DNA of 64,000 nucleotides from Lytechinus pictus (GCF_037042905.1 NC_087245.1:19036001-19100000), one strand, 5' to 3'. Shown: positions 1 to 64,000, counted from the stretch's first letter. Notes: generated by a model not told the origin, from the sequence alone. Numbers and translations are program-made.

Positions 1-384
1 TTCACACACGCTGTATTTGTAGGCCTACATAGTGCATTATTTAAAAATACAAATCTGCTTTCCTGTCAATTAAGCTTTACTTTTAAAACATTTTAAATCG
101 CAATTAATTATAATAAGAACAAAATCGTAATATTAAAGTATGATGAATGACTAAAAATATTTCTCCCGCTCGTGATGGACACGTTCATTATTTCATAGGC
201 GAGTATAGAACAATACAAATGAACATAGCAATAATTGACAGTGATAAACGAATCTTGATTGGATATTATTAGTATTTTACATCATCAGCAGAAGTCTTAA
301 TTATGAGAGTTATAGTTTCAATGAGTATCTGAAAACAAAACAAGCATGCAAATTACATCGTCTCATGAATACCGATGCCCATTA

Positions 385-560
385 TTTGGAAGCCTCGGAA
401 GTTTTCTTCCGAGGCTTCCAAACAAAGTCGGAACAATCTTTGGATTGAGTAAGGGCGTGGCGCGGCGCGCATGCGGTCCGTAGATGTAGTCGGTCATTGA
501 CACGCATTCACAAAATGAATCGCACTTTCTAAGGACGTAGCGATCTAGACATTGGAAAGT
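385..560 (+). promoter_or_regulatory. Candidate CpG-rich promoter of the + strand unit
   Basis: Seen: CpG-rich patch with Sp/KLF-type box GGGCGTGGC (453-461), NRF1-like GCGCATGCG (467-475) and CGGAAG ETS-like cores in an inverted repeat at 385-422, directly upstream of an ATG and a GTAAGT donor. Promoter function is inferred. Confidence 0.5.
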
Positions 561-606
561 ATGGAGTACATTATCGATGTCATTGATGTGAATAAATCTA
601 TAAACT
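561..606 (+). CDS. Candidate first coding exon of an unknown small protein (MEYIIDVIDVNKSIN + 1 nt)
   Basis: ATG at 561 in good context (aagtATGg), open to a consensus donor CT|GTAAGT at 607 (phase 1). A 5-codon upstream ORF starts at 515. No homology recognised. Confidence 0.4.
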
Positions 607-1399
607 GTAAGTATAAAATGAGATTGAATTTAAATCTTTTCTTTTGACCTTTTTCATCAGTACTTGCCTTTCTGCTTCAATCGATCGCAATTCGCGCAAC
701 CGTTACGGCTGTGTGGCCGGAGAAGCATTAAATAGACATAAAATGTGGTGCATTTAGCAGCAATCTAAGCTCTTCGATATTGATATTTTCGATAGCTACC
801 GCGCTCCGCACGGGAGGGGGGACACCCCCCTCCTGCAACCCTCCCCCCGTGCGTGCTTCGCACGCACCAAGGCCGCTGCGCGGCTTGCGTACCATCGCTT
901 CGCGCCGCCAAGCGTCAGAATGAACCTGGCGAGAACGTTGTATACACTGTACTAAAGTGATCCTTGCCATCAAAATCTTCCTAAATATGGAAAAACTAAT
1001 CCATCATTTTCTATCTAACATTGCTCTTTACATCAGCTTGAAACAATTATACTGACACACATGTACATGTAGATGTAATAGCATTACACATATGGTATAT
1101 TAGTAGTAGTACTATCGACCAGTCATCAGAAACGTGCAATAACATTACTATTTCCTTTTTACCTTGAGAGAGATAGTGTTGCTCTTCTTTTTTTCCTCCT
1201 GTGTTCAATCTATATACCCTCGTCCAAGGTTGAAAAAATATTATAGAGAGGCCTCGTTCGATAACACCTCTATATAAATGTGAGAACTAGATCCTATTTT
1301 TCTGAAGCTACATTAGAAAAGAAGCGAGGTGATTGTGTATGTGTGTGTGTCCTGTAAACCATAAAGATATTGTATTGATTTTTTTTCCTTTCAAAACAG

Positions 1400-1476
1400 A
1401 CGAGGTGCAAGAATTGGACGGGAATAATTCATATGAAATTTATTGTTATCTAGATCATGTGTGGACTCTTTATTAA
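1400..1476 (+). CDS. Candidate exon 2 of the + strand unit
   Basis: Acceptor ttttttcctttcaaaacAG|. Continues exon 1 in frame (YEVQELDGNNSYEIYCYLDHVWTLY*, stop at 1474-1476); alternatively spliced at a weak CAT|GTGTGG donor after 1458. Confidence 0.33.
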
Positions 1477-1503
1477 CTACATGTAGTACTTCCAAGAATC
1501 TAA

Positions 1504-1952
1504 GAGGCCGTTCTCATTACGCTTTCTAAAACTAGTTTACTGGAAACCGATTCAGGAAACCACTTTGGAAGATCGCTTTGCTAGCGTTCCCACTTGATCA
1601 CACGAAAGTGGTTTTCAAAATCACTTCACGTAAAGCGCTCTTGTCGCTATGGAAACGCTCTCAGTGGGGTGACACGTTTCGCGCGAAATTTGAAACCGCA
1701 GCATAGGCATTCTACACCTGTCGTGTGGAGTGGCGCGCTAAAAATGTGCGAAGATTGCTTCCCGAAGAATGGTTGTGTCCTCACTTACGCTAAAACCAGT
1801 TTAACGAGGCAAAGCGAACTTAAAAACTACATCGCGAGGTGGTTTTCCAAACTGGTTTGGAAGATCGCTTCCAAGACCGCAGTGACCGTTCTCACTACGC
1901 GTTAAACTAGTTTCCACTAAACTAGTTTTAGGAACGTAGTGAGAACAGCCTC
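1504..1952. mobile_element. Non-autonomous DNA transposon (MITE), PIF/Harbinger-like
   Basis: Imperfect TIRs of about 35 bp (GAGGCCGTTCTCATTACG... / ...CGTAGTGAGAACAGCCTC), direct 3-bp TAA flanks at 1501-1503 and 1953-1955, internal repeat of TTTGGAAGATCGCTT, CpG-rich. A TWA TSD is typical of PIF/Harbinger. Confidence 0.85.
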
Positions 1953-3994: not shown

Positions 3995-4501
3995 TTGGTG
4001 TTTTGTTTCTTTTATACTCTTTAATTTTATGTTTATTTCAAACAATAGCCCTTTAATAAACCTTTATGGGTAGTACTGTGAGAAAAGTGCTCAGATTTAA
4101 GCAGCAAGAAACTGGGACAAAAAGATGAGAGAATTGGGTGAGGTGTTAGCTTTCTATGTAGTTTTGGCACTTGGTGCATCCGTGAAGATTGCAATCTGGA
4201 ACTAAATTCAGGTATAACCTGCTTACAAAAGTGGGTCATATCTAGTTTTAGTGCAAGGAAATTTTTAAGTCTGAACATAGTTTCTATTTTGGTCAGTAAG
4301 TCATTTCTTTTGTCACTGCATAGTGCATACCAATAGAACAATTCATAGATAGACAAAAAATAAAATAAAATGAAAGTTCATGTCATTAGGTAATCAATTA
4401 ATCCACAAAACAACGAAATAGTTTATTCTAGTGCCCAGTGACAAAGCATGCATTCATTATTGGACCCTTTCCCAAAACATGTGCTAAAGTAAGCATCATT
4501 A

Positions 4502-4976
4502 GGTGGTTTCAAACCGCCTCGATCATAAGAATCCCCGTTAAATTACGAGAACTTTTTAAGGCTAAAAAATACCCATTAATTATTCCTGCATTCACACCGC
4601 CCCAAAACATACCCTTCGGGATAAGTTCCTGAAGTTACGAGCATGCGCAGTATGGTCTGTATAAGCAGGCAAGGCGGGAGATTCAAAATCACTAGCCCAA
4701 CAGCCACCCACGGTGCCCGCGCCCAACGACACACCGGGCTAAAAGTTCCCGTAAATTGCTTTCACATTGCCAAAATACCTGCGACCTTGGAAAAATCCCC
4801 GCGAAAGTTCTCGTAATTTTGCCAAGTACCTACTATTTAGCGGGTATTTTCTTTCGGGGAAATTACGCGTAGTTTGCTTTCACATTACCAAAATACCTGG
4901 TATTTTCTGATCGGGGTAAATTTCCCGATCAGAGAATACCTGGAACTGACGAACTTCGAGGCGGTCTGAAACCACC
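4502..4976 (+). mobile_element. MITE family B, copy 1 (475 bp, TA TSD)
   Basis: 21-bp TIR GGTGGTTTCAAACCGCCTCGA / TCGAGGCGGTCTGAAACCACC, TA on both sides, near-identical inverted copy at 39324-39798. Confidence 0.92.
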
Positions 4977-5629
4977 TAATGATGAATAAAATCTGCATGA
5001 ACACTAGTTTAAACCACAGATTCAAATGTCAAAACCACTGTTGTACATTCAGGCCAAGATTTTTCTTTCGAGAATTTCGGTATGTTAATTCATCTGTCCA
5101 ATTTCCAGTTCCTTCAATAAATGACCACAATGTCATTTCACATCATGACTCATCGTACTGTTAATCAATTCACAGTTTACATCCAGATTGGGAACAAAAG
5201 TATTTTAAACAATCCACAAAAGTACAGGTACCAAATAATAGAAATAACAATATCTTGGCAATCAGAAATAAAAATTTGATCAGATACAAAAATATCTGAA
5301 TAACCATGCCAAGAATAAGAAAGAAGACATGAAACTTGTTTATCTTGTATATAAATATAGAATTTCTTTCTATATGAAAAGCATGAGACAAACTGAAAGT
5401 GGATGATGTTTTGACAACCGTTATGTGGTTAAAGGCACAGACCTCTTGTTCTTTATACTATCCCAAGTTCACAAAGAGTAACCGGCATTGTTAAATCTTC
5501 GCAAATGTTAAACCACGGTTAAAAAATAGCATAAGTACCCATTGCACACATAAACATGTAAGCTTAATGAAGACAGATTGTTGCACTTATATTTTGTTCA
5601 AACATTTTGTTCATACATATTGTGCTTAA

Positions 5630-6232
5630 AGGACAAGTCCACCCCAACAAAAACTTGATTTGAATAAAAAGAGAAAAATTCAACAAGCATAACACTGAAA
5701 ATTTCATCAAAATCGGATGTAAAATAAAAAAGTTATGACATTTTATACTTTCGCTTCATTTCACAAAACAGTTATATGCACATCTCGGTCGGTATGCAAA
5801 TGAGGGAACTGATGACATCACTCACTCACTATTTCTTTTGTATTTTATTATATGAAATATGAAATATTCTGATTTTCTCGTCATTGTCATGTGAAATGAA
5901 GTTTCATTCCTCCCTGGCACATGGAATTCCATTATTTTAACATTGTTGTGCTTCAGGCAAGGAGGTCCTAATCATCAAATTCGTAAAAATTGAAATATTG
6001 TATAATTCAAACAATAAAAAACAAAAGAAATGGTGAGTGAGTGACATCATCGACTCTCTCATTTGGATGTAACTGGCTCGTTCATATAACTATTTTGTTT
6101 AAAATAAGCGAAACTTTGAAATGTCATAACTTTCTTATTTTACATCCGACTTTGATGAAATTTTCAGCATTGTGCTTGTCTGATTTTTCTCTATTGATTC
6201 AAATCAACATTTTTCTGAGGTGGACTTGACCT
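5630..6232 (+). mobile_element. MITE family A, copy 1 (TTAA TSD, AGG...CCT ends; Kolobok/T2-MITE-like)
   Basis: TTAA at 5626-5629 and 6233-6236; long imperfect TIRs starting AGGACAAGTCCACCCC; two further full copies at 43691 and 45747. TTAA with RR...YY termini is the Kolobok signature. Confidence 0.92.
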
Positions 6233-6861
6233 TTAAGAAAGGAGTTACATTCACTGACATATGCTCAGCATATTTTATTGTAGATATTGACCAATGTTTT
6301 ATGATTTTATCCATTACCAGTAAGTCATTATTCCCATGATTTTTCCATTTTGGCTGAGGATTAAAAGAAACATTAAATTTCTATTGGAAATTATATAGCC
6401 TATATACTGCAATGAATAAAAGATAAGAACGTTTAAGTAATTTTCATTAAAACATGTGCAGTCTCAAATATTACCTTCAAGTTTTATTGTGTAAGAAAGA
6501 TCAATCAATTCAAAATCTATGGCGAAATAAATTGATGGCTTTTGTTTTCTTGTTCTTTTACAAACAACATTTGCAAATTAAATGTAAATATGTCTTTCCA
6601 TTCTAGTTTGCTTGTTTGTGCTAAATTGTTATCATGTTATATCCCCTCTACTCAACAGATGAAGATTTATTTCTAAAAAATGACAAAGCCAACTTTGACT
6701 TTAGGATTTTTTCTTATTTGTATATATGAAATGCACTTCTGTACAGAGAACTAATAGGCCAGCTGAGCCCAATGCCTTTTGTGTTCTGCTCTTGTTTATG
6801 ATCAAGCTGGTCTAGCAATTTGTGGTTAATAACTACAGATTGAGTTCTGTTTTCCACATAG

Positions 6862-7079
6862 AACAACAACAGAAGCACCATGACGACACAGCCCGCCTGA
6901 AAAAGAGAAAGTTCGTCCCTCCCCCGCTAGCAGGCGGAATATTGCCTGTAAAACCACATCACTGCACAGAGGCATGTTTCTTGGGTTCTTCATTAGCAGC
7001 ACTGACCGCAAGTTCTGTTGAACAACATAAGGGATGGCAGGACTTATCTCCTCTGACAATGGCCAGCAGGAAATTATAG
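6862..7079 (+). CDS. Candidate terminal coding exon of the + strand unit (QQQKHHDDTARLKKRKFVPPP...SRKL*)
   Basis: Acceptor ttctgttttccacatAG| at 6861, GC-richer exon-like composition, 72 open codons in phase 1, ATTAAA at 7225-7230. Could equally be a non-coding exon. Confidence 0.35.
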
Positions 7080-7699
7080 AACTTCCCTCCAAGAGGAAGA
7101 ACCAATACAATTTATTGATATTTGTTTGACATTTGCAGAAGATGTACTTCTTTTGTTTCCAGTGCCCCCATTGCAGGGTGGATGGACTGAGGGCAAGAAT
7201 TACGGCAAATAGGGATGGATAGAGATTAAATCTATAAATTTCAATACGGTTTTACATTTTTCATGCTCTGATGTCCGTAAAATCACTCCCTCATCATCCA
7301 CCAGGCTCATTTATTTTCTTTCATTTTGATGCTAACTTCCGCTGTCTTTCATTGTAATCAACTGCGATCTCCTGCCCCACTTATGTTTGTCTCTATAAAT
7401 GGACATGAATGTTTGAGTTCCTTTTTATTTTTCTAATTCTGTGTTTTGCTTAAAACTATTTCATCTATTCACCCAGTCCCCATCTCTTTCAGTTTTTTTT
7501 CTTAATTTGTTCTTTACACCATACCTTTCACTCTTTTGCTCACCCGAAATTCCCCTTCCTAACTTTCTCTTTCTCGTCTCTAAATCTCCCTTAAACTTCC
7601 TCCCCCTCTGTTTCCTTTGGTACCCAAGGAAAATACTTCATTCTCACAATCAAAATTAATACTAACTTCCAGATAATTACTTTTCTCATACTTGATAAA

Positions 7700-8045
7700 T
7701 TTCCGTAAAAACTGATGCCAACAAGCATAAAATACACTTTATTTCTCATCTCAAATGCTCATTTTATCTATGTTTTATTCCCCCCCCCCCCCTTTCGATG
7801 TTTCATCTTTGACACCAACAGACATCCTACTGTTTGGTATGGTAATAGATATCTTCATCATTCTGTTACTGACAAAGGGGCTAACAAATCACGTTCTACC
7901 GCATAAGAAGATCTACCCCAACACCTGGTTTGCCGCATCTCAACACAATGCAACTCGTCACATCCAAGACCGCATCATTTGACTCCCAGAAACCCGTCTC
8001 ATCATCAGTACCATGAACCCAAACAAGTTCTGCTATGGAAGAGAT
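7700..8045 (-). ncRNA. Candidate terminal exon of the - strand unit (3' end undefined)
   Basis: Minus-strand acceptor tcccttatatatgctcacAG| at 8046, followed by exon-like sequence; several minus-strand AATAAA between 7100 and 7780. Confidence 0.3.
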
Positions 8046-11000: not shown

Positions 11001-13200
11001 TTCCACTGGGCCATACATGTACAATGTACATACTTGTAGAAACCAACAGAGCCGCTTTCGACAACGAATTGGATACTAAAACTAAAATTAAGAAATGTCT
11101 TTCAGTGCCACAATTGAAGAAAAGTGAAGTGACATGCAAAGGCTTAGCTTTCTTTCATACATTCTTAAACATAATTAAATTGCTCCTTTATTCTTCCACC
11201 TTTTTTTCTGACGAACTGGGAAAAATTAAGAAGCCTTGCCTATACGTAAATAAACAACAAAGTCCAATTTACTTTCCTACTGATTAACAAACAGGAAATT
11301 GTGTCTAATCAGAACACTTTGTACAAGATGTAAGTGAGGGGAAATTAATTTTTAATACTGTCTATGCATGAAGTCACCATAAAGATCTTCCCAAAAAAAT
11401 TGTGATTCATTTTCCATACCAGGCCGTTGCTCTTGGGGTAATTTCCAGAGCTTTTAATGCAAGAACCAGAACAATGTTACCTTAAGAAGACAGAAATTAG
11501 GAAGGGGAATCTCCATACGGTATCATCTACTATCATCCGCCACCCACAAATGTAATGCTTCCGGTCCCCCTAACTAATTTGCAAGGAGACGAAAACATTA
11601 AATTAAGACAGCTCTCTCTCTCTCTCTAGCTTTATCTCTCACTCAGGATGCCATGCTTGGATGATCAAACAAGAAATCAATTTACCATGGAGGAATTGCC
11701 CACAACATCTTTAATTTCAAACATTATCTTTTCAAGATGAGCCATCTTCTGATGATCCAATTTCAGAAATTAGTTGAAGGATTACTAGAAAGAGAGGAAG
11801 GAGGGTGGGTAGTGAAGATGGATGCCGAGATGCAAGATGGGGAGAGAGGCAGAGAATGAATTCTCAGGGAACGGTTTTTCTGGCCAATGACTAAACCAGT
11901 TGCTGTGAATCGACACATTACGAGAAAGAGACGAAAAGCTCCTTGGACAGCTTGCCTGAGGGCGAGCAAGAGAGCGAGAGCAAAAGAGAGGGGGTGGAAA
12001 GGAGAAGAGTCGGGGCAAGAGGAGGAGAATGAGAGGAAGAAGGGGTGCACTTTCCATTGAACTTTGTCCTCTAGATGAACCCAACCATGGTGTGTGTATA
12101 TGCATGACAGAGCGTTGTGACTGTATCGCCGATTCTCACTGAAGACGTCATACGCTCGCTCATTTAGATCTCCTTTCCTCTTCTTCTTCCTCTCTCTTTC
12201 GTTAACCTGTACTAGAACGAAGTTTTGCACAGTATGTTCTCCCCATTTTCTTTAATTCTTTTGCATGGCCTCATCTATGGATACAACTACATCTTTATTC
12301 TCTCATTCATCCATCTATACGGCAAATCATTTTGTCTATGCCTCTAATTAAAATCACTGATTATATAGAAATGAGTCAAATCTGCCAAAGGTCTTCAGAA
12401 AACCATATGTAAAAAAAAAGAACATCCCCGGGAGAACATCAACTGAAACAAAACATAAACTTCAGTAACATCCGCTACTAGACTTGAATCGACGACCAAT
12501 CCATACATTTTCTGGAAAAGGACTAAAAGTTTCAATCATAACCTACAGTGTAATTCATACTTCAAACAACATGCCTGGGCTTTCGTTGCACCGAGATCCC
12601 ATACAATTCTACTAAAAATACACCGTTTCTTCATCAACCTCTAAATACGAATGTAGCAGAGCTACCTGGGTGGCCATTATAGAGAGGTGCTAGGCTCTTC
12701 CTTCCTAATTCATGTTCTAAATCTCGCAGGGCAAACACTCCCTGTTATCAGAAAATATAAAAGAAATTTGTGAAGTACCTAGAGTAGTGATCTTTAAATA
12801 GATCAATCTAATATATATCATTTCACGATTATCTGACTTTCTAGGCACTCAAGATAACATTTTAGGACATGAATTTCAGGGTGCCTGTCGCCTTGTGGTG
12901 AATCTACAATTGCAAATATATTAGAATTATGGCCTATAACGGTAATTAGAATATGGATCATTTTGTTCACACGTAATTTAGAGCTCTATATTTGTGCTAT
13001 GATAGTAAGAACCTTCTTGCAGGATACCAGATGGCCAGGGAGCCAACTCAACTATATCACTGTACACATGCATGACCACAGGTTTTTTACTATTCCACAA
13101 GTATATATATATTCTTCTGTTTGTCAAAAATAGTACCCCTCCATAATTTCCCCAAACCTTTCTAGGATATAATTTACTCCAAGCTATTTCACCCTGAAAC

Positions 13201-13400
13201 AGGGGGGAGGGGGGGGGGGCTTGGGGGACATGCTCCCAAAAGTATCATGACCATGAAAAATGGAATAAAGGAAGGGGGAAGAGTGAAATATATATATTTT
13301 TTGATTATTTTCTGAATGATACGTCAAAATATATTTTAAAATTCTATTTGTACTAAAATGTTTTTTGGCTCACTTGCTTTGCTCGCATTTTTAAATAGAA
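13201..13400 (+). repeat. Degenerate interspersed repeat beginning with poly-G + GCTTGGG
   Basis: Alignable by eye with the reverse complement of 56055-56210 (GGGCTTGGG...CCCAAAA...GACCA...AGGGGGA...GTCAAAAT.TAT...TATTTGTA). Confidence 0.55.
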
Positions 13401-16494: not shown

Positions 16495-18355
16495 GGCCAA
16501 GTAAAAAAAGATAGTAGTTGATCGTCCGGGTTTTCTGAGAGCAGTGATGAGGGAGGTCCTTACTATTTGCTATCTTGCTATTTTTTTTAAAAACAAGGAG
16601 GCATTTTCTCGGCCCGTTTTTTGACATCAGTGATGAGGGAGGTCCTTACTATTTACTATTTTTTTTGCTATTTTTTATTCAAATGATTGTCAGGCCATGT
16701 CAAGCTCGAATTATGTGATCGATGCATGCTCAATATTAATAATAAATGAGTAGAAATATATGTATATATATATATGCGTAATATATATAGGATGGGGGGT
16801 CGGGTGTCCGGACACTTTATATTTTTGAAGCCTTCTTTTTTGTCTTTGGATTACACTAAAAATATGAATTCAATAGTTGTAATCATCTTCCATTTTGTTC
16901 TCTATAATATTTCCTTACATTTTGCACTAAAAATTGATGAAACTTCGCTTGTAAATTTTTCCAAATGACTTTCTAAAATTGATCGTCCGGACACACAACC
17001 TGTCCGGACACACAACCTGTCCGGACACACAACAACTGGGTATACATGTATACAATTGATTGGAAATATATATGGAAAATGTATTATGCGATAAAAATCT
17101 ATTGAAGTATTACTGATGTATACCGGTACTTGTTGTAAAACAAAATGTTCATGTCAAGTGAATGATTTAAACATTATTCTATATTAATATATTCATGTAT
17201 GTAAGGGTAAAACATGCATTGGGGGGGGGGGTCATTTTTATTACCATATGGAGCCATGTTCAGTTTTCCAGAGCCAATCTCTTTTTTAGCTCTGGGCATG
17301 GTTTCGCATCGCAGTTTCCAGCTGCTTGTATATTCGTTTACATAATGTTTAATACTGTTCAATTTTTATTCATTTTTTTAATTGATATCAAATGTTAAAT
17401 GATTATTGAATTAATTGTTAACATAATGTTTATTATTTCAATATTTGTAACTGTTAGTGTTAGATCTATTTACCGTACTAATGTTTACAATTGTCCATCA
17501 AATTGAATAGCTCGAGGAAGAATGAAGTTTATCAAATTTGAACAGAATTGGCACTTACTGGAATCCCATTAATGATTTTCAATATTGATAATGAATAACC
17601 CACTTGAAATTATTTTTTGAATATTCAATGCATTGCCTGCTGACGTTTACAAGAAAACTTGCCAGAAAATTCAATTCATTTCACAAATTGACATGTCGCG
17701 CCAGCACAGTCAATCACATCATCCCAGCACACATGCATTCACCCAACAGAGTCACAAGCACAGCTCATTCACCGGTCCGTAACACACATCGAAGTACTGG
17801 CGCTATCACTCACCAAAATACCCCGCTAAAATACAAATTACATCATTAAAATTGATTTATCTGCGCCATATTTCCAAAGCACGCGACGGATTAGTTCAGA
17901 TTCAGGAAGCGGGGTCCCCGAAAATGCACTAAAAATGAAGAAATCCGTGATCTTTTCCGAGTTTGCAAACTTTATTTTCTCGCTAATTTATGATGGTATC
18001 TTCAAAATTCCAATAAAAAACCAAATCAGAATTTTTTTCCTTCTTGCAGTTACGGCGATATCGGACTTACCAATTGTTTTTGAAGTTGCGAGAGAGATCC
18101 CAGAGCACATGAGAGCAAATCACTAGCCAATCTTGTGAAATTTTTTCGCTATTCAGCAGCCATAAAAATAGTAAATATCAAGAAAATTGATGCTGCAGTC
18201 AAAAAGGAAAGCAGGCACGGAGGAGAAACATCACTATTTTTTTTTTTTTTTTTTTTAAGCCAATTTTTGAAAATAGTAAATAGTAAAATTTTTCATGCGG
18301 CGGCCAAAATAGATGCGCGCGAGGACGATCAACTACTTTCTTTTTTTACTTGGCC
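16495..18355. mobile_element. 1.86-kb non-autonomous DNA transposon, Zator- or PIF/Harbinger-like
   Basis: 33-bp TIR GGCCAAGTAAAAAAAGA(T/A)AGTAGTTGATCGTCC with one mismatch; direct TTA flanks at 16492-16494 and 18356-18358; no transposase ORF inside. Confidence 0.88.
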
Positions 18356-24934: not shown

Positions 24935-26183
24935 CTGCATGGAAAAACAAAAAATTAAATGAGTCAAAATTTAAAGTTTCAAGGTACAGTTTTGTTTCAT
25001 TTCAAGCAGCATAAAATCCTTACCAAAGACAAAATTAGGCTAATAGCGGTCAAACACTTCCATCAAAATATCACCTGTGTGAGGTAATAAAACTTGCAAA
25101 CCCTGTGAACGCAAATGAAAATCAAGCAATGCTAAAGTTCTAGGCAATAATTGATAAATCACCTGAATCTTGGCAAGGACTCAAATCAGATAATGGTACA
25201 AGAGTACAGGCCAAAGTTCAAGTTATTTGATAGGAATTGACAATAAAGATATCAACTTTAATGCCAATACTAAAGGGTGCTTAATGCCATAACCCAAATA
25301 AATGATAAAATAAATTGCTGCTTATTACTCCAAAAACACATCCTCATTGTATTTTCAAATCACAGGTATAGTGCCTTAATATGCACAGGGTGCAATGTGT
25401 ACAGACTATAACCTTATATACATGTATCCTTCACAAACTCTCAAAAAGTGCAATACTTCGGTGTGTTCAAGCACTTTCTTCAGAGATAAACATGCAAGCA
25501 CGATTCATAGTTATTAAAATAGATGTTTGTTGCTGTAAAAAATTTAAATAGCATGCTTAGTAAAATGAAATTCTCAAATTTGTTTAACTTGCAGCATTTC
25601 TCATGATCAAATGCACATAGAAAACAAAATCAAAGAATAAAAGAAAAATTAACTTCCCTATTAAACCTAGAAGTACGAAAATGTAGAACTACATATCCTT
25701 TTTCAATGACCTGGTATATACAGTACATGTATGTACAGTAGGTTTCAAACACTTACACTGTACAATCACTTTGGAGGATATGCACACAAAACATTTATAT
25801 TGAAATACTGTACGAATAAAACATAGGCCTATAAAGAACCCCTTTGCTTTAAATTTTAATAAACAAATTATATTATAGATATATTATATTATAGAGTGGA
25901 CCCCCCTCATTTCCATTTATGCTCAATTTTATACTGTTTTTTTTATGAAGTAAGAATGTTTATCCCTAAAATTGTATCTGATTTATATTATTTTGTATTA
26001 TGTTTTGAATGGAAATGTAATACAGAATTATATTGAATATCCATGGCTTAACTCCAAGGCCTGTTGACTGGCCTCAATGTCCCTCTAATTTATATACCAT
26101 TTTAAATTTTTAACTAATATATACAGAAATCATTAAATTGTAAGACTGAAGAAACAAGGACAGACGGTCTAAAGATTAATAAT

Positions 26184-26808
26184 AGAGACTTTTAGGAGCA
26201 GTGAATGAGAACGGCGTAGCAGTCGTCTGATCGTTCGAGTCAACGCCGTCGTCTGCACTTGTTCACTACAGATGCGAATACTTTAGATTTCACACGACTT
26301 GAACGTGTACGTACGTCCACGTGAAACAGCGCGATAACCAGCCGGTCATGATACGCTGCCCGACCCGGAAGATCTGGCGTACCATCGCCTGGCGACCCGG
26401 TCAGGTGATGCGAAGGTACATGTACCTTGTGCACACTTGCCCTTTCACTTGCTTATATTCCTTTTTACGCGAGTTAGGATATATATCGATATAGATTTTG
26501 GAGATCAGAAAGCAATTTCAAATATGATAAACATAATGCATCGTACAACTTACATTAATTTTGTGAAAAAGTCACTGAAAACTGTGTTTTAAAAGGGAAA
26601 GGTTGAACTTCATGCTGAGCTTCAGCGGTTGAAATGACGTCACTCATGTGCACGTCGACTATGATTTAGGAGAACCACAAAATGGATGTGGCGAGGTTCT
26701 CGATTCTGATAGTGGATGTGTGTGAGGACCTGAGGCATATGGAACGCCAAAAAATGACGTCATCTCGTACCAGTTGTCTATGTCGATGTGCATTTCTAAA
26801 AGTGCTCA
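26184..26808. mobile_element. Putative non-autonomous DNA element, CpG-rich
   Basis: Short imperfect inverted ends AGAGACTTTTAGGA / TTCTAAAAGTGCTCA, AT on both flanks, abrupt rise in CpG; no coding capacity recognised. Confidence 0.45.
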
Positions 26809-26818
26809 ATGTCAAATA

Positions 26819-27188: not shown

Positions 27189-27767
27189 TATAACTGATGT
27201 AATGTGAAGATGTGTGCCCTAGAAAAAAATAACCTTACCCTTAGACATTGATATTTAAGGCTTGAACATTGGACCATCATCCAGACATTACAATCATAAA
27301 CATTTTCAACATGAGCACAGGTCAAAATCCAACATCTAATGGTTTGTTTTCAGGCAGCCTGTGTTTAAGACATACATAGCCCTTTGAGATGAGAGCAATT
27401 CCGAAATCAACAAATAAGAAAGTGCCTAATTGTCATTACAACTGCTTATTGTTTTAAATACATAAAATAATATGACAAGAATGGAGGTGAGAAAATTATC
27501 ATTCTCTTAGTCTTACCTTTTTCCTAATGCTAGAAATATAAATGAAGTTTGTCCTACTACGTTATTTTTAATAATATTCATTACATATTAACATATTTTG
27601 CTCTGTACAGGTTTATCATTGTTCATCATGACATAATCAAAGGCCCACTCTTTCCGTTGGTCACTGATGAGCTACATGTACAGTACATGTACAGCAGATA
27701 AACTATTTAGGCCCAATATCCTGGTACAAAGGTTAAACATAATAAAAAAAAGTTGAGAATCACTTAC

Positions 27768-39000: not shown

Positions 39001-39323
39001 AATGCATATCATGACAAATCCATCCTCAGTCCTTATGAAGTTTATCTTATTCTTTTAGATAAATGTTTCAAAAAAATCAGTACCAAATACTTGTACCTTC
39101 TTGAATAATATCTATGCTTATGATTCAAAATTAAACAAAGAATAGGCAATGAATTCTCTCTTTTCGGCTCAGGAAAAAAGCACTCAATCATTTTAATAGC
39201 AACTTGCACTGCTCTCAATCATGAAAGCTGTCAAATTATCTGTCATTTCACTTATACTATAATCACCAACCCCTACTTTTACTTTCTCATCCTTTGTGGC
39301 ATGAATTCATAAATCTCTCATTA

Positions 39324-39798
39324 GGTGGTTTCAGACCGCCTCGAAGTTCATCAGTTCCAGGTATTCTCTGATCGGGAAATTTACCCCGATCAGAAAAATA
39401 CCAGGTATTTAGGTAATGTGAAAGCAAACTACACGTAATTTCCCCGAAAGAAAATACCCGCTAAATAGTAGGTACTTGGCGAAATTACGAGAACTTTCGC
39501 GGGATTTTTCCAAGGTCGCAGGTATTTTGGCAATGTGAAAGCAATTTACGGGAACTTTTAGCCCAGCGTGTCGTTGGGCGCGGGCGCCGTGGGTGGCTGC
39601 TGGGCTAGTGATTTTGAATCTCGCGCCTTGCCTTCTTATACAGACCATACTGCGCATGCTCGTAACTTCAGGAACTAATCCCGAAGGGTATGTTTCGGGG
39701 CGGTGTGAATGCAGGAATAATTAATGGGTATTTTTTAACCTAAAAAAGTTCTCGTAATTTAACGGGGATTCTTATGATCGAGGCGGTTTGAAACCACC
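39324..39798 (-). mobile_element. MITE family B, copy 2 (inverted relative to copy 1)
   Basis: Reverse complement of 4502-4976 with scattered substitutions and two 1-nt indels; TA flanks. Confidence 0.92.
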
Positions 39799-40060
39799 TA
39801 TTGAACAAAACAATCACTTAAAAAAAGAATGATAATGCACCCGGCCCTGTAGGGTGTGATAACTATAAATAAGACTATTCCATTGGATTGCTTTGTATAT
39901 CAAATCAAATAAAAGATTTTCCCAGCAAATCAGAATTTTATGTGAAACATCTATACTGTACATGATTCACTAGCACAAATAGAAATGCATCTTTATTCAA
40001 TCTGTTCATCCCCAATCTACGTGTATCTTCAAATGGGCTACTACTCATCTCTTTATTTAT

Positions 40061-40109: not shown

Positions 40110-42699
40110 ATGACATATAGTGAGAACTCATGGCTTTATTATACAGGGATTACAATCTGAAAATCATATACCCTTAGCAACGCCTATAAGAAAACCACAT
40201 CCCCCAATAGATATAGACCTTCCCATGCATATAATTTGATGTTGTGTTTAGTGACTGCACGCTATTAGTCATACGTGTGCATTCTGCGACTGTTCAACTG
40301 TGTGCAACTGATCATCGATTGGGGATGCTACATGTATGGCAGCTTCCGCATTAACATACTATACGTAAGACTACTAGAAATTAAGTATCGGTATAAGAAA
40401 GAACTGTTTTAGTCAACCAATGTCAATAATTCAATTCAACAAGATTTTTAAAATCAACAATGCAAAATATTAGTCACAATGAATGAACAGTATTCTTTAT
40501 TTTATTGAGATATCACCAATTATGGACGAAAAAGAAAATTACCAAGGAGGATGTCCCAGAAAACGAAGGTCAACTGTCAGTTACATGTATGTAAAATTCA
40601 TCGTTCAGAAAGATCTGCCCAATGATTTAATTTTACTAGAGAAAATTATTTTTGAATAATTCCTTAGTGTTTGAACAACTTTGGGCCTATTCAATTTGAT
40701 ATTTTTCAAGAAAAGTAGCTGTACTCATACCAAAACTTACTGTTACATTTATACATCCTGTACATGTATTTTTATGTAGGCCAAAATGTTAAGAGTAAAC
40801 CTACATAAAACAGATGGGTCCTCACTTCCACGATACATGTTTATTATGGTATCGGTACATTGTAGATAATATACATTTCAGAGCTAACTGAGAGGGTTTT
40901 TAAAAGCAGCTATTAAATGGTGGTAAAACATTTCTTCAGCAATCATTTTCAAATACATCATATTTTGATTTCAATTTTCCATAGTACTGGAGTTCAAGTC
41001 ATGAGGTTTTTGGCCCCTCTTGCCTGCCTTTAGTCTCTCAATGCAGCCTCAATTTGAAAACCCAGGAAAAAAATTGACTCTGTATGGAATACAGCCAGGG
41101 AATTTGAGTGGAAATATGAAACAACCATCGTACAATACTCAGTTTATTGTGAATTTAAATTAAAGTGAATATACTTCTTTCAACATTAAACAAAATATGT
41201 AGGTTAAGCCCATCAATTAACAATAGAACATGACCTTTGAAATCTTCATGAAATGGACAATAATATTTCATAGGCATGCCATACCATTTTTAGTTCGACA
41301 AAGGGACAAAACCAAATTAAGTAGGCCCTAATCAACATACTGTATGAATCATCATAATATAATTTCACTGTGGTATATTCCTGAGCATAATACGCTAATT
41401 TGGCATAGTGTAGGCCCTACATAAAGCTTCATTATTCACGATTAGTATGAAACCATAGCTGATTTGGGTCAAATGTGATTCATAATCTCCTCATACATGT
41501 CATGTATATAAACGATAGGGACCAAAATCTAACAAAAGAAAATCAATTTTTCACGATTCATTAATTCGTTTGCCAATTGGATTCCATATGGACATCGCAT
41601 CTGCAGTTGCGATCCAGTGTCTTGCAATGTGAATTGTACACTTAGGACAGCAACTGTTCCTATCAGGTAAGCCTTCGGAATTGAAACAGGCACTTCCTGT
41701 TCAAAATAAAAACTGGGACATTCCATTTATACCATCCTCTTGAACAAAAAAAAACCTCCTTCCTCTCAGAACAGACATCGTCACTTCCCTTTCAGTCACA
41801 AGATAATCAAAGACTTCCACAGACATCTCCCCAAATAGGGTCTGATGGTGGAGACTAACCCCACACCAGAAGGGGTGAAACAGAGTTCAACGGCAAAACT
41901 TGACAGAGGTTAGAAGCAGGAGCAGAATTTTCAGAGTAATTGGTGAATCACGTTCACGAAATAGCATGCGGTTTGTTTTGTAACTCCAGGTGATGCCGAA
42001 AACCGTCTTCAAATTCTGCCCTTCCTTTCTTTCCTTCCTCCCATTTTCACTTTCTTTTTCTTCTTTTTTTCCTCTGCAAGTTTCCCTACCATTTTTTATC
42101 TCATATATTTTACTTAGAAAGGAAACCAAGCAGGACAGATTTTCAAGCCAAACTACACTAGTTCACTTCTAATTACCCCTTGTTTCTTTGATCAATAACG
42201 ACAAAAAATAGGGAAGAATAATAATTGAGTTATGTTACAATGTATGTTAACAACAACTATTTATTCTCCATTTTTTAAATACATGGGATCTAATTCTTCT
42301 TCATTTGTAACTTGTATTTTTGCACACTTAAGTGATATCACATTTTGCAAAAGCAAGTGTACAATAAGGGTAGGAAATATGTTTGATTTTAGGGGCTGCT
42401 TTTGCCAGATTGGGGCTAATTCTTTTAATTCAATGGATATTTTTGTTATCCAACCGTAATATATTTCATAATTCTGCTGGACATATATGTAAAATATAAA
42501 TTTTCCATTAAGTGTTATTGAACATTTTTGGGGGCAAATCATGGGGCAACTTTAAAGTTTGGTTGCCCTAAAACATTCCACTTTGCAAATTTTAGGGGAG
42601 ATTTTGTTATGAAGGCAAAATTTCACTAGCCCTAGTGTGTTCCCTACACTACATGTAGTACATATTTTTAATGTTGTTTTCTTTATTGAAGTTTGTCAG

Positions 42700-43208: not shown

Positions 43209-43690
43209 TTATGTACATGTACATGCATACATGTACATACAGTAGTTTAATAAACTAGAAACAGAGACTTATTAGGAGGTCTCAGTCAGGTCAGACAAAC
43301 ATTTTTTTTTGTGTAATTATAATTATCATACATGTATGTACATGTAATGTAAAACTTGCAACCTCAAATTAGCCTACAGTTCACACAAAAAGCTGAATGT
43401 AAAAACCTCATCAACATCTCAAAGAAAAAATAGCCTATAGGCCTACATTTTCATGTCTTTTTTTTAAACCTTGATATCCTTCAGGGTCTATTCAGAATAT
43501 AATTTCCTTCATGGTCTAATGGTTAAAACTATTGTAGTAAATCTTATAAGGGAGAGGTGTTTACACTGTGCTCAATAACATTTTCATCCCACTGTTGCAA
43601 CTTTTAATGTTCCATTTCTTTAGCTCTCATACAGGTACATGTACGGCTCTATGTCCTGAAATGTAGTCTACACTCACAGACTTTTCTTAA

Positions 43691-44284
43691 AGGACAAGTC
43701 CACCCCAACAAAAAGTTGATTTGAATATAAAGAGAAAAATCCAACAAGCATAACACTGAAAATTTCATCAAAATCTGATGTAAAATAAGAAAGTTATGAC
43801 ACTTTAAAGTTTCACTTAATTTCACAAAACAGTTATATGCACATCCTGGTCGGTATGCAAATGAGGAGACTAGTGACGTCATCCACTCACTATTTCTTTT
43901 GTATTTTATTATATGAAATATGAAATATTCTAATTTTATCCTCATTGTTAAGTGATACAACAATTAATTCCTCCCTGAACATGTGGATTTAGCATTGTTT
44001 AATACTATATGGTTCAGTCAAGTTGGTCCTTATTGTCAAATCTATAAAAAAATGAAATATTGTATAATTCAAACAATAAAAAACAAAAGAAATAGTGAGT
44101 GATGGACATCATCGACTGACTCACCTAGTTGTGCATATCACTGTTTTGTGAAAAATAAGCGAAATTTAAAAATGTCATAACTTTCTTATTTTACATCCGA
44201 TTTTGATGAAATTTTCAGCACTGTGTTGGTTTGATTTTTCTGTATTTATTCAAGTCAGCATTTTTACTGGGGTGGACTTGACCT
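43691..44284 (+). mobile_element. MITE family A, copy 2
   Basis: TTAA at 43687-43690 and 44285-44288; same TIRs as 5630-6232. Confidence 0.92.
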
Positions 44285-47523: not shown

Positions 47524-50500
47524 TTAAACTTTAAACTGTGGAGGCGACTTTCATTTCCAACTCAATTTATCTTTAGTCCATACCATCTGTGTGCAAATGT
47601 TATTCAATATTTTGGTCAAAATTAGACCCATGTTTAATGATCACCATTCATTTCTCTTTAATTATATCACATACATATCAAAAAAGCAACTCGAGAATGA
47701 CGAATTACACAATTGCCTTATTTTAAATTACAAAGAGAATCAAGTGTTTTGTTTAAATGTTTGACAATAAAAAAATTTACATTCCCTCCCTTTCTTTCTA
47801 CATCATTAAAATAAAAAATGTTTGGATGGCCACTCTCCACACCAAAATATCAAGTTTTCTTCATGATTTCACAAACCAAACAAGATCCTTTTATGCCTCT
47901 TGGTCAATCAGCAAAAGCTCTATTTCAACTTCATCCAGTTTTCCCCCTTCCACAAATTTGAGAATTGATATGACATGACTAGTGACTATACAGTATGTCT
48001 ATTCTCTTATCTCCCCTAAATGCTTTATGTACATTTATAACAGTGAGGATATTCTTGGCTAGATCATTTTATTTATGTACAGCTACATCTATTGATCTTG
48101 ATACAAATAAAAAGAGCTTCAAAATACATGTAACAAACTAAATTCTGGACACACTTAATTCTTGAAGTTGAAGGTGAAGACTGCATGGTTTTATATAAGA
48201 CACAATCAGAAAATGAGAGAGAGACAGAGAGAAAGAAAGGTCAATAATCTTATCCATATTGAATACATTTTTCAGAAAAAAAACTCTTACATCCTTTCTG
48301 GTGGGACTATCTTACTACTAGACAATGGGGGGAAACGTCCACCAGCTGAAAAATGAGTGCATGTGTCAGCATTGAAGTTGAAAGAATTTCACTTTTCAAA
48401 GTTCAAGGACCTTAAAAGCAAGTGGCTGCACTTCCTACTGTACATTGACTTCCTACATGTATCAATTATTCTGAATCCAATCCCCTAATATCAATATGTG
48501 ATAAAAGAATATTTTTTTAAGCACCATGAAAATGAATCCATACTATCTCTTGAGGAGATTGTTACTTTGATCTACACGTATAGGCCTAAGTGTAGCATTT
48601 AAGTAGGCTACATTATAATAATTCGATTTCTGATGATTCATTTATTTACACCAACTGTATCATGCTAATCATGTTTTCCTTTTTTTTTTTTTTTTTACTA
48701 AAAGAATGACAGAAGAATTAGACAGATTATGGCCCATGTTGTATACTCGAAGCAGAACAATTCACTGATTCATGCTTACAACATGGATCATAATGATTTC
48801 AATACAGTTCACCAGTCATTCTAGTACAAAAATGAACAAAAAAATAAACTGCTTCCAATACTTTGTAACTTTAAATTCTTTAATATCACAAATCAAGACA
48901 AATTGAAAATACTTTTTTTTTCCTAACAAAATAATTCTCCCCATTTGAACTTTAATTCATAAACCTTGAACTATCTACATGTATCTGTAGAATGTAGGGC
49001 CTATCACAATAAATCTTACCCTTTTTCAAATCTCATTAAAAGTATGATGTGGTTCTAAAACACTATAAAAGTACAAAACATTGTGCCAATAACATTCTCA
49101 TTACAACTTTATTTTGCAACCTTGTGTATTGTGTACAATTACAAATGAAGTGATTGATTGCTTGAAATCTAAAATTCATGGCACAAAAACTCATAATTAG
49201 TTGAGGTTTGGAACTTGAACATAAGTTATTCAAAACATTATGATCACAATTTCATGCTTTATTATTTATTGATTTCATGCTAAATATTTTCTTTCATGAT
49301 AATAATGCCTGGTGTTCACATGTCATTGTAAGAGCTCAGAGGCCTATTATCTAATATTGTTTCAACAATAAAATCATCAAATCCATCCTTTACTGAATAC
49401 AGAGAAATAGGACTTCAGGTTTTAAAAAAAGTGTCAAAACCAACAAGACAATACTCGAGCAAGATGAAGTACATGTAGGTTATTATTTTTAAGGGCTGAC
49501 TGACAATGTTATCCTTACCCAGTTTTTAGATATCATAAGTATGGATGGAGGTTAAAAATACAGTTCATCCAGAATGATTCAACTCTTGATAATTATGTGA
49601 CAGGAAATGATTCCACATTGTGAAGCAACCAACCTTGGCCGAGTTTAACAATGAATGACAACTCTTAGGACACTGGGATGGGCATAAACTAATATCGACA
49701 ACTCTGCATGTTAAGCCAGTTTACGTGTAGGCCTATCTACATCACATGGCAGAAATCATTCTTTGTTCAGAGAAGTACACTCACTTTTCATAATTAGCTT
49801 CAGACACATAAAGCTTTCCATGGAAGTAACTGTAATGTAACTTTCATTTTAATAAACGATGTCCTTCCGAAATTAAGATTTAAAACATAGGACAGACACT
49901 TCTCATGGTTAAAACAAGAAGTCATGCCGTGTGATGCTTTGTATTATGGGAATATGCAAATGCTGAATTTAGCTAAATGCAAATAAGGAGGGTTTGATAC
50001 AGAATATGCTTTTATTCATTATTTATAAATGGAATACTAATTTTTACAAAAACAGAGTTTCTTGGTTAATCTTCAGGATGATTATGTCATTTCCACAACT
50101 AATTGTGGTATTATAGCTTGACATTTCAGTTGTTTGATTCCTGTTTGTTTTACAAACGTTACATGTAGGCCTATATACATTCGCTTATGACAGGAATAAT
50201 AAGGAAATTAGCATTACAAATTCAAATAACATTAGAAACATGACTTCTAAAAAAATGTTATTTCAAATGAATACTCCAAAAAGCTTAAGTTAAAATTCAT
50301 TTCAATGACCAGCTACTAGGGCAGATCCATTCCTTAAGGATAAGGACATAATAACTTTTCATTACTTAAACCCTTTTAAGCTGAAACAAGGTCGAAAAAT
50401 GTAGACTTTGTGAAGAAAAAAAACGTTTCAACAGTTGCGAATGATGACTTTCTTAAATTTCACGTGATAACCAGTCACTCCACCATTACAAAAATGTAAT

Positions 50501-59212: not shown

Positions 59213-59213
<1 letters not shown>

Positions 59214-60777: not shown

Positions 60778-61345
60778 CATACTGAATCGTTGGCATATCA
60801 TTGCGAATTCTGTAAACAAAAGACATGACGGAATTCAACTTTTCTATTTTTATAATCATATCTGAATGAGTGTCAGTTGTTATTGCTATTTCTATTTACA
60901 AAATATTTGAAGGAGGTCATCTTTTCTATATTTATAATCATATTTTGATCAGTGTCACATTATTGCTATTTCTGTAAACAAAAATTTTGAGGGTTTCATC
61001 TTATCTATTTTCATTAATCATGTCTCAATAATTGGCATATTATTGCGATTTCTGTCGACTAAAATTATATAAAGGATTCCACCTTTTTTATTTTTACAAT
61101 CATCTGAATCAGTGTCATATCATTGTCATTTATGTAAACAAAATATTTTAATGATTTCATGTTTTCTATTTTTATAGTCATATCTGATTCACTGCCATAG
61201 ATCTATTATTTCGATTTCTGTAAACGAAATGTATAAACAATTTCAACTTTTCTTATTTTATAATCATATCTGAATCAGTGGCATATTATAGTGATTTATG
61301 TAAAAAAAATATTGAAGGATTTTGTCTTTTCTATTCTTATATTCA
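60778..61345 (+). repeat. Degenerate tandem repeat, about 80-bp unit, about 7 copies
   Basis: Recurring TTTCTATTTTTATAATCATATCTGAATCAGTG...ATTTCTGTAAACAAAA at 78-86-bp spacing. Confidence 0.85.
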
Positions 61346-61419
61346 TCACTGTCGAGAAATTCGGTCTAGGCCTATATCAACGATTCTTTCCGAGAAAATA
61401 TTAAGAGAGCTAAGAGCGT

Positions 61420-61620
61420 TGCAGGTATACGGATACTCGGCTAGGCCGAAGCTTACCGCCGGGATTAGCGTTCTTTTCCGTTGATATTGCACCAGGGTCG
61501 CCAAAACGTCACATTTCGCGCTGATATGACGTAGTGATGGTACATCGTTGACGTAGGAAAGGCTTGATTAGCATCCGTCAAGTTGCGTAAATAATACACA
61601 ACATGGGCGCCATGTTCTTT
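61420..61620. promoter_or_regulatory. Candidate CpG-rich cis-regulatory module or promoter
   Basis: Three CRE half-sites (61506, 61527, 61549), TTGCGTAA (61583-61590) and GGATTA (61462-61467); donor-like CAG|GTATAC at 61435. Confidence 0.35.
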
Positions 61621-61987
61621 AAAAAGAGTGGGAGGGGTCGGGTGGGTGTGAGATAATAGTAGGAAAGAGGATGGAGACTAGAGGCACGTACCTGGAATAG
61701 GCCTACCCCTAATTGAAATCTCATAATGCAAGTATTAATTGGAAAATTAAATTTAAGTTTTTTTAAGCACAATAATTAGGCTCTAAAATAAAACATGGGA
61801 AACCAAAAAGAACTGTAACATTGTGCATAATAATGAAAACCACATCTGCGCCAGTATAGGTCCTACATCTCCCCCACTTTCTTTTCCAGCTACATTATAC
61901 TCTTTCTTGTTTCCTTTAAAACATGATGAATAAATCATAAAAATGCATGCAGAACCAAGATTGCTAACTGTTTTTATTTTAAATCAG

Positions 61988-62080
61988 ATAATTCAAAATG
62001 ATTATCAGCATCATCAGAGGAAATGCCATAATTTACACACTCTGGATGAAATGGGTGAAAAGTCCCACTTCTGTGGAATG
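61988..62080 (+). other. Isolated 93-nt exon of an unidentified + strand gene
   Basis: Branch point CTAAC, pyrimidine tract and cAG| acceptor; donor ATG|GTAAGT; open in phase 0 (IIQNDYQHHQRKCHNLHTLDEMGEKSHFCGM) and also from an internal ATG. Confidence 0.55.
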
Positions 62081-64000
62081 GTAAGTTTAATCCGTAACAA
62101 AGATAATGAGCCTAATTATTAATTGAAAAATTCATTGCATAATCGTAATTTTTTATCTTAATTTCATTGCAGAATTGATTATAGGTCACTTTCATTGCAA
62201 CTTCACAACATGCACCCGATAACAATTATTGTTTATATACAATCATTATTAGATTACGTGAATGTCAATAATTTAGGCCCTACTTTACAATTATCCGGAA
62301 AGAATGATATACTAATTTCTTAAAACAATCTGCAATGAGTTAATTTGCTTTGTGAGATGGGGTCTGATGAACTTACAAAGAATACATAATTATAGGTCTC
62401 AGGAAATAGTGGCAGATCTTGATAGAGGGGGGGGGGGTGTGGTGGGGGTCGTGCAGGTGTTCTCGTTTGGTGACCCCATCCTACCACTTTAGTTAGTTTC
62501 AGTTAATTTGTTAAAACCTCTATAATATATACTAAAAAGTTTTTTTTAATGAAATTTCTGTCAAGTGGCGAAATATAATGAGGCAGAACATTTCTGAGTT
62601 TGGATTGTGCAGTCTTAAAAAATGAGCAAGGAAAAGATAAACGTCTTCCAATAAGCAATTACTTCTATATATGTTATAAAGACTTCAGCCCCTCCCCCAC
62701 CATCCACCTTAACCCGAGTGGGTGCTACTGTAGGGGGGGTGTTTTTTTTTTTATGTAGTAAAAAGGGGGAAAGGGCAAAGATGAAGAAAGAGAAAGAAAG
62801 AAAAATATAAAAAGAGAGATCAGGGTCGTCTAGCTTTATTCAACCCATGAAATTAATGGGAAATGAAGTCACAGGTCATCTTCCATTATTCCCCTTTAAA
62901 ATACCCTCACGCAACTTTTGTCCTCAACTACCAGGACGTAGTATATGGGGGGGGGGAGAACATTAATTGAATGTGTAAGTATCTTTGATTGTCACCGGTA
63001 GTCCTATAACGTGCTGCAGAAAGCCAATTTCAGGAAAGTTCTGGGGTCGGAAAAAAACCGGGCAATAATTTGTTGTCTGCTTGTGGTGTCCTTATCATAG
63101 TTCGTAATAAAGGAAGAAGTATAAGGGTTGCCAACCTGTTTGGCTGGCGATACGGCTCCTCTTTGAAAGGAATTTGAAATATTAACTTTAACAAAGAGCA
63201 TGTAATTATACGGGTATCATATTAATATTTTTATGTAGTTCTATAAAAAATAAAAATAAAGATAAACAAAACGGAAGAGCTAACGATCGCCGGAAAGAAA
63301 AGGTGAACAAAGGAAAGAAGAGCAAGTTAAATGATCGAAGAGGGATTTCATTGCAATTGTGTTCTTAGTGTAGTACCTCTTTTTTTTTTTTTTTTTTTTT
63401 GGGGGGGTAGTTTTTTTAGTTTTCCCCGAGAACTATTATTAATTTTTATATTAGAAACGAAAAAAATGTAAATATTACCTGCTATCAACACAACAGGCAG
63501 CTTAATTTGTAGAACAGGATTGAGAACAATGATGTCATCATCCTGCAACCCATGAACAAATTCCCGTAAGACATTTATTTGAAAAAAGTAGGAAGGGGCA
63601 GCCCCCCCCCCTTTCCAAGGCCCTTGCATTGAAAATTAGAATTGGTGTTCAGACCGCTCTAAGTTAAATACACTAAATCATGTATTTAGGCATGTATGAT
63701 AGGGGCCAAACACGTACAGAAAATCAAGTCTGCATGGTAAAATGAGAAAGGAAGGTGGAAAAGCCAAAGGGCGGCGCCACGGTGGGGGGGGGGGGGGGTA
63801 GTAGGAGTGATCGTCTTCTGTGGTTTTTCAAGTAGTCCGAAAAACAAATAGGAGAACAAAAATTAAGAAAAGAGGGGGAAAATGGAAGAAAAAATGAAGA
63901 AGAGGTATGAGTCGCACAACTGTTCGAAAAACAAATGACATCATAATACATGTAGGTCTTCTTGCATCAAAACATCCTGACAAAAACTTATATGGCCCTA

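Follow-up and report, generated by a model that had tools for sequence, protein, structure and literature searches.

A 64,000-nucleotide stretch of Lytechinus pictus DNA (GCF_037042905.1 NC_087245.1:19036001-19100000, the whole of which is called the window here) contains two palindromic words, each a four-letter core set between two TA dinucleotides, far in excess of chance: TACATGTA, with the core CATG, is about 20 times and TAGGCCTA, with the core GGCC, about 40 times as frequent as expected. We consider it likely that these and the other enriched words of the form TA-core-TA are excision scars of two types of TA-targeting cut-and-paste element. The words were seen to be in excess, to need a TA on both sides, to lie in biased flanks and to have cores that form a ladder of lengths, and insertions of this form, duplicating a TA, were observed directly; we infer that the CATG and GGCC words of the window are themselves TA insertions and that a transposase made them. 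The footprint mechanism is textbook knowledge, and the new parts are the density of the scars and the GGCC series.

Excess of TA-core-TA words

The 57 copies of TACATGTA compare with 2.28 expected from base composition, 2.85 from a Markov model of order 2 and 4.22 from one of order 3, and the 19 copies of TAGGCCTA with 0.67, 0.47 and 0.75 respectively. Expectations rise to 10.7 and 2.83 at order 4 and to 23.7 and 9.61 at order 5, orders which largely learn the words themselves, and a two-fold excess of both words persists even at order 5; an order-3 background in which both words had been collapsed to TA gave 2.5 and 0.4. Counts made by eye in the original prediction (about 55 and about 19, against about 2 and fewer than 1 expected) were therefore close to exact, and in the Markov comparison that it had proposed the excess holds at orders 2-5. 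The two words together reach 1.2 per kb, or 1.5% of the 5,049 TA sites of the window (G+C 35%, CpG observed/expected 0.53), and TACATGTA, which dominates, accounts for about 0.9 per kb of this.

Counted on both strands, TACATG was followed by TA 114 times and by the next commonest pair 7 times, while the figures for TAGGCC were 38 and 6, showing that a TA is required on both sides of the core. When 16 palindromic TA-xxxx-TA words were compared, the only ones to stand out were TACATGTA, TAGGCCTA and TATATATA, the last a microsatellite. The original prediction had also claimed that several minor words recur, and this holds for TACAGTA with TACTGTA, or TACWGTA (25 against 10.4 expected, p=9e-5, the two orientations being nearly equal at 12 and 13), and for TAGGGCCTA with TAGGCCCTA (6 against 0.2, p=3e-8), whereas TACCGTA with TACGGTA, also present 6 times, is not significantly above the 3.0 expected in the window (p=0.09). 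The density of the strong words (those counted in the first line of Table 1) is uneven among 4-kb bins, ranging from 0 to 14 (p=0.003), and 13 hand-picked repeat copies (7,610 bp) are depleted in them, with 2 words against 9.0 expected. The bin at 4000-8000 contains no strong word at all and holds two repeat elements.

Variants of TACATGTA with one mismatch number 66 against 48-50 expected, and transitions among them 27 against 14-15. This excess is about 0.3 of that of the exact word, which by hand arithmetic gives a decay of about 3-4% per site. Two of the public runs compared below (X1 and X6) diverge from the window to a similar degree, 2-8%, and so the words look young and a sizeable share of them would be expected to be polymorphic. 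Low decay would equally follow from selection on the exact word, so that age does not separate scars from binding sites.

Table 1. Positions of the word field, chains, insertion sites and principal repeats in the window
Feature	Position	Strand	Remarks
Field of enriched TA-core-TA words	20..63954	.	57 TACATGTA + 19 TAGGCCTA + 25 TACWGTA + 6 TAGGGCCTA/TAGGCCCTA
Family B, copy 1	4500..4978	+	479 bp including both TAs; GGT ends; TCAT-TA-ATGA context
1.86-kb element	16495..18355	.	GGCC termini; inverted ends of ~40 bp; TTA on both sides
Mixed chain TA-TA-TA-CAG-TA-CATG-TA-TG-TA-CAG-TA	25715..25740	.
TACATGTA in a multi-copy repeat	26417..26424	.	Other copies 4 letters shorter (3+1)
Mixed chain TA-CATG-TA-CAG-TA-CATG-TA	27673..27691	.
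TACATGTA with contig end	37013..37020	.	X1 contig ends exactly at first TA
Family B, copy 2	39322..39800	-	96.5% identical to copy 1; TCAT-TA-TTGA context
TACATGTA, possibly absent in other haplotypes	40582..40589	.	X6 contig match ends exactly after first TA
Chain of CATG, TG, CA and CAG units	43210..43244	.
TA-CGTG-TA-GGCC-TA	49722..49735	.	CGTG is a one-transition variant of CATG
Mixed chain TA-CATG-TA-GGCC-TA	50160..50173	.	Sole join of the two main words
80-bp satellite	60778-61346		~7 units, 70% matches
TA-GATC-TA	61198..61205	.	Clean +6 insertion with TA duplication in 1/6 aligned satellite units

Flanks, core lengths and chains

Flanks were profiled after each chain of words had been collapsed to one TA, which left 99 sites. 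CA-type half-sites are enriched for T at +3 (0.52 against 0.34) and depleted of A at +1 (0.12 against 0.33), and GG-type sites are enriched for C at +1 (0.42 against 0.17) and A at +2 (0.52 against 0.35) and likewise depleted of A at +1 (0.18 against 0.33). The target preference of Tc1/mariner elements is a symmetric A..TA..T. The biases at +1 and +3 recur in loci of other organisms, found by searching metagenomes for a chain in which both words occur (119 loci, 317 kb, of which 114 loci and 296 kb were kept for flanks), where CA-type half-sites have T at +3 in 0.47 against 0.31 and A at +1 in 0.14 against 0.29, and GG-type sites have C at +1 in 0.43 against 0.22. In these loci TAGGCTA/TAGCCTA have the same C at +1 (0.44 against 0.22), and this common bias ties the GGC core to the GGCC series. 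As controls, 16 viral loci matched by the 14-mer chain contained one TACATGTA and one TAGGCCTA in the 90.9 kb outside the match, and of three matches to a longer pattern in prokaryote genomes, the two long ones had no surrounding word field.

The cores also vary in length. Variants of +7 are enriched in the window for the CA series (CAATG/CATTG 6 against 1.6, CAGTG/CACTG 5 against 0.9) and for the GG series (GGGCC/GGCCC 6 against 0.2). Among the other loci, 110 of the 119 were kept with the query match masked (4 arrays built from the motifs were dropped, as were 5 loci that were duplicates or alleles), and these gave GGC/GCC 87 times against 25.5, GGGCC 18 times against 1.1 (in 17 loci) and GGGGCC 7 times against 0.3 (in 6 loci), with no enrichment of the GG-series cores GGG, GGGC and GGGCCC. 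The GG-series cores may thus be read as prefixes plus suffixes of an element end starting GGCC (GG+GCC, GG+GGCC), and those of the CA series would fit ends in CAG and possibly in CAT(G). Cores CCGG, CTAG and GATC were mildly enriched in the other loci.

We propose that integration of an element at a TA would duplicate that TA, that later excision would leave a few terminal bases of the element on each side and that end-joining would close the break, enclosing these bases between the TA copies. The words TACATGTA and TACWGTA and the +7 variants of their series would then come from Tc1/mariner-type elements with CA ends, and TAGGCCTA with its GGC, GGGCC and GGGGCC variants from a second, putative TA-targeting element ending in GGC(C), which would not be the family B described below. 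Leftover overhangs ending in AT or GC could anneal to each other, so that one palindromic +6 product would dominate.

The Minos element reportedly leaves a 6-bp footprint with a non-palindromic core that occurs in two orientations; the words here would resemble it in their uniform +6 length, made of four terminal bases plus TA, and differ in that their cores are palindromic. Excision of Tc1/mariner elements is described as leaving 2-3-base 3' overhangs which with the TA duplication yield a footprint (PMC3878927, PMC8151067), whose core for Sleeping Beauty is C(A/T)G (PMC3878927, PMC8151067, PMC5224488; these and the other papers cited here were available in part). The matching words of the Sleeping Beauty and Frog Prince type, TACAGTA/TACTGTA, are about 2.4-fold enriched here (PMC3878927, PMC5224488, PMC8151067 for the footprints) and form a minor class, about 10 of the 25 being expected by chance and the one at 30801 differing between haplotypes by a substitution. 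The word taCATGta is itself a rare Tc1 footprint in Caenorhabditis elegans (PMC3520976, citing Eide and Anderson 1988), with the TA duplication around two terminal bases of each CA..TG end, and in that animal the end-joining factor NHJ-1 governs Tc1 empty sites in somatic cells, with no obvious such role in the germline (PMC13148408). Elements of the IS630/Tc1/mariner group, including ISY100, target and duplicate TA and are cut two bases inside the 5' end (PMC2170065, PMC10045372); the available parts of the literature examined describe no member with GGC(C) ends. Dense, genome-wide inherited scars were not described in the literature examined (genome-paper supplements and subscription journals could hold indel spectra), and no paper there treats TAGGCCTA as a whole word, the available parts of PMC2872659, PMC520745 and PMC4284660 containing nothing on it.

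Words often share a TA with a neighbour. All five chains claimed by the original prediction lie where it had placed them (Table 1), and the one at 50160 joins the two main words and cannot be a product of single-unit slippage. The 107 strong words make 8 shared-TA joins, 5 of them between different cores and 3 of them CATG-CATG doublets. A uniform null of sequential insertion, in which every TA was equal, gave 2.26 joins (P=0.003 for the 8 seen), a flank-aware null that included the new TAs made by scars gave 4.6-5.0 (P=0.07-0.12) and a rougher flank-aware chain null gave 6.2 (P=0.28). The chaining thus exceeds the uniform null but not the flank-aware one, which weakens the accompanying claim that chains are hotspots hit repeatedly. 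Most of the chaining is explained by the pair of TAs that each scar yields, since the preferred flank is matched on their inner side; insertion hotspots are allowed by the chains and are not needed for them. Under the proposed mechanism chains would come mainly from these two favoured-context TAs, and some same-unit doublets may be slippage.

It is extremely improbable that mutation bias or slippage alone, whether by CpG decay of CGCG to CATG, by slippage of alternating purine-pyrimidine runs or by point substitution, made the words. CpG is indeed depleted (0.53), CATG-CATG doublets account for 3 of the 8 joins and some sites did originate by substitution (30801 in the window and L048:2505 in another organism's locus), but the excess survives Markov orders 2-5, TACGCGTA (2 copies) and its half-decayed form (5) are too scarce in comparison with the 57 complete words, GGCC contains no CpG decay product and 5 of the 8 joins link different cores.

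Insertions and alternative origins

One of six aligned units of the satellite near the end of the window (Table 1) carries GATCTA, which the other five lack, four of them reading a plain TA at that place. This is direct proof that a +6 insertion with a palindromic core and duplication of the TA has occurred in this genome, with a third core.

Among the metagenome loci, motif sites were compared with aligned paralogues or alleles, and 13 differed; sites that matched every partner were set aside, as was a palindromic, AT-rich array in L004. Three were clean TA-duplicating insertions (L048:4594, CATG, +6; L009:1605 and L058:5823, both CCG, +5) and three more were larger insertions containing the word (L024:1854, +9; L084:579, +10; L048:2072, +11). 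In the three clean cases the core was not copied from the flank, and in these and in the satellite it had no counterpart in the empty site. The TA-duplicating type of insertion is therefore real, yet it does not account for every paralogue instance.

Contigs from 4 of 11 public runs (X1, X6, X10 and X11) were aligned to 24000-43600, and the results below rest on the 12 of 418 indels and 39 of 1,462 substitutions that were listed, which are dominated by repeats (the 12 indels all lie in high-depth ones), and on 32 listed contig pieces. At 26417, 3+1 letters are absent from nearly all the depth of all four runs, and as the other copies of the repeat are shorter there, this TACATGTA is new. An X10 contig over 40329 and 40582 is short by exactly 6 letters somewhere along its length. 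Of the 62 ends of the 32 listed pieces, 2 coincide with the first TA in a copy of TACATGTA (37013 in X1 and 40582 in X6) against 0.11 expected (P=0.006). These observations were made post hoc and are indirect hints of insertion.

Two further places differ among the runs. At 42234, two bases before TACAATGTA flanked by two TATGTTA repeats (42234-42244), the X10 and X11 contigs leave the window and continue for 320 unlike letters and those of X1 and X6 span it; this is possibly a filled site or some other insertion. At 37665-37695, which contains TACATGTA and then GGCCTG, there is a 31-bp gap between X10 contig ends, and an X1 piece over the region is short by about 30 letters, possibly a larger insertion polymorphism.

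It could be argued that the +6 TA insertions are real but owe nothing to transposons, short palindromes being added by host repair or fold-back where TA steps have broken. Every strongly enriched +6 core is palindromic, the word at 26417 belongs to a perfect palindrome of 16 bp with a net +4 relative to its family, and a source element was not found in the window, all of which this explanation would accommodate. We nevertheless regard it as unlikely, because only 2 of the 15 non-microsatellite palindromes are strongly enriched, so that a fixed template is needed, and the core is absent from the empty site in the clean cases. Nor do the palindromes extend past the 8-mer more often than under shuffled pairing (at the first flank base, 17 of 57 TACATGTA against 15.4 and 6 of 19 TAGGCCTA against 5.9), which argues against fold-back copied from the flank, and on this ground a hairpin or fold-back as general origin was rejected.

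Selection is another candidate, by which the words would be transcription-factor sites kept or built by it, of Irx or Myb type for TACATGTA. That word is a preferred Irx site, and as motif-1/AM-20 it is an abundant Phytophthora promoter motif which was read as a binding site after the footprint idea had been considered and set aside (PMC3520976, in the part available); PsMyb37 binds it (PMC11134190, likewise in part), and it is highly abundant in non-coding DNA there (PMC3520976, PMC11134190) as it is here. The modest one-mismatch enrichment (66 against 48-50) is such as selection could give, and the conserved flank profile in loci of other organisms would fit as well. Against this, the words are spread through all 64 kb at 1.2 per kb, and selection does not produce +5, +7 and +8 length variants, mixed chains or insertions of whole words inside repeats; unlike the Phytophthora reading, the length variants, chains and insertions here argue for a mutational origin. 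Judged from such patterns in the DNA, binding sites as the origin would be very improbable.

Several results weigh against excision scars. The 12 of 418 indels listed include no clean 6-base gap of CATGTA or GGCCTA at a window site, and a clean +6 insertion of GGCCTA was found neither in the window nor among the 13 paralogue sites. The new TACATGTA at 26417 shows a net change of +4 where +6 would be expected of a scar, and fold-back could have made it; at 30801 an A>G substitution, unaccompanied by any gap, separates TACAGTA from two other haplotypes; and the CATG sites at 25419, 30071 and 31820 are undeleted in haplotypes that are 1-4% divergent, as is expected of older scars, but lend the reading no support. 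At three of the 13 paralogue sites substitution is the sole difference (L048:2505, CATG; L048:1288, GGCC; L048:317, CAG), and the remaining ones are one tandem duplication, one mixed case and two that align at only 67%; the metagenome loci themselves come from other organisms and were selected for the words. Depletion in repeats was not seen in repeat-rich 654-bp bins (12 in 11 against 23 in 19). The footprint taCATGta is rare for Tc1 (PMC3520976, in the part available), whereas here it dominates at about 0.9 per kb and is apparently inherited. No convincing TA-CA..TG-TA or TA-GGC..GCC-TA element is present in the window, and no transposase remnant was found there, Pfam having no match to the 150 longest of the 193 frames of at least 62 amino acids (short exons would be missed).

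Excision footprints, as the original prediction had read the words, are nonetheless the explanation best supported, by the satellite GATC insertion, the paralogue insertions, the flank bias and the ladder, although the indels listed show no 6-base CATGTA or GGCCTA gap directly at a site of the window. The activity of cut-and-paste elements is usually judged from the copies that remained, and if the words are scars, some 76 exact +6 scars with no recognisable source copy in the window would mean that past transposition is badly undercounted. Each site could then serve as a measure of transposition, with dates drawn from its decay and polymorphism, and behind the GGCC series a further element family would await discovery. 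Oomycete studies regard TACATGTA as a regulatory motif, so that motif discovery in such genomes may be picking up scars, or scars may supply binding sites. More tentatively, and with doubt on our part, scars may be a major, overlooked class of inherited mutation here, occupying about 2% of TA sites and arising, by very rough hand arithmetic, at a quarter of the rate of substitution per base, with the GGCC series derived from an undescribed TA-targeting family, active in several distant organisms, whose self-complementary GGCC ends let the breaks rejoin like sticky ends. On that view scars would far outnumber surviving copies and form a countable, datable record of transposition, one missed by repeat annotation, and would continually add a known transcription-factor word to non-coding DNA.

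Candidate source elements and other repeats

The original prediction had traced TAGGCCTA to family B, a family of inverted-repeat elements with two copies in the window (Table 1), and this attribution, or one to similar GGT-ended elements, is not supported. Family B is TA-flanked and has GG..CC ends, of which two bases kept per end would give TAGGCCTA; the family is very abundant in all four runs (copy 2 lies at very high depth in each), and TAGGTTA/TAACCTA, the +5 scar expected of a GGT end, is weakly raised (10 against 4.3, p=0.01 uncorrected, one of 32 classes), 3 of these 10 sharing a TA with a strong word. However, the family B context CAW-TA-WTG, as defined by a small sample of two insertions, occurs at 0 of 25 GG-type sites and TTAGGCCTAA, counted for the context test, is absent from the window; A at +1 is depleted and C at +1 enriched at GG-type sites; and the +7 core expected of a GGT end, GGTCC/GGACC, is found once (0.2 expected) against 6 for GGGCC/GGCCC. 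Family B could moreover be an AGG..CCT element without duplication, the empty site being the same either way. We therefore think a family B origin of TAGGCCTA improbable; to judge from the weak rise of TAGGTTA/TAACCTA, GGT-ended elements may leave a minor +5 scar. The family B end pattern had 0 matches in metagenome contigs, 0 in viral contigs and 1, without further likeness, in prokaryote genomes.

The 1.86-kb element at 16495, which we take to be PIF/Harbinger-like, was rejected as a source of TAGGCCTA, as it has a 3-bp duplication and its predicted scars TTAGGCCTTA and TAAGGCCTAA both number 0 in the window. A TA-CAG pair at 12544-13933 (15/18 alike) and a TA-CATG pair at 33837-34359 (15/20 alike) were rejected as sources, since likeness of that degree is expected by chance among as many pairs as were scanned.

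Elements with TA-CAG, TA-CAC and TA-CCG ends are present in the loci of other organisms. A 256-bp inverted repeat at L076:2413-2668, in single copy, has TA-CATG at both ends and a flank fitting the CATG profile, and is a possible candidate element with CATG termini, its true ends being uncertain. Arrays at L074:1780-1945 and L118:265-534 consist almost wholly of TA-bounded units (GATC, CATG and CATGGTC-type).

The window also contains several small inverted-repeat elements, and Rfam had no match in it. An element of about 600 bp with TTAA-AGG ends, presumably Kolobok-like, has three copies 78-84% alike (5625-6240, 43683-44292 and 45740-46325), one of which carries a +4 TA-CG-TA at 46086. Inverted-repeat elements at 35541-36020 and 26816-27191 have TTTCACAC near their ends, as family B does, and the X10 and X11 contigs depart from the window at 36031. 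The repeat at 33843-34345 is present in very high copy (depth up to 400,000) and joints link its end back to its start, which suggests that it is a tandem unit of about 486 bp.

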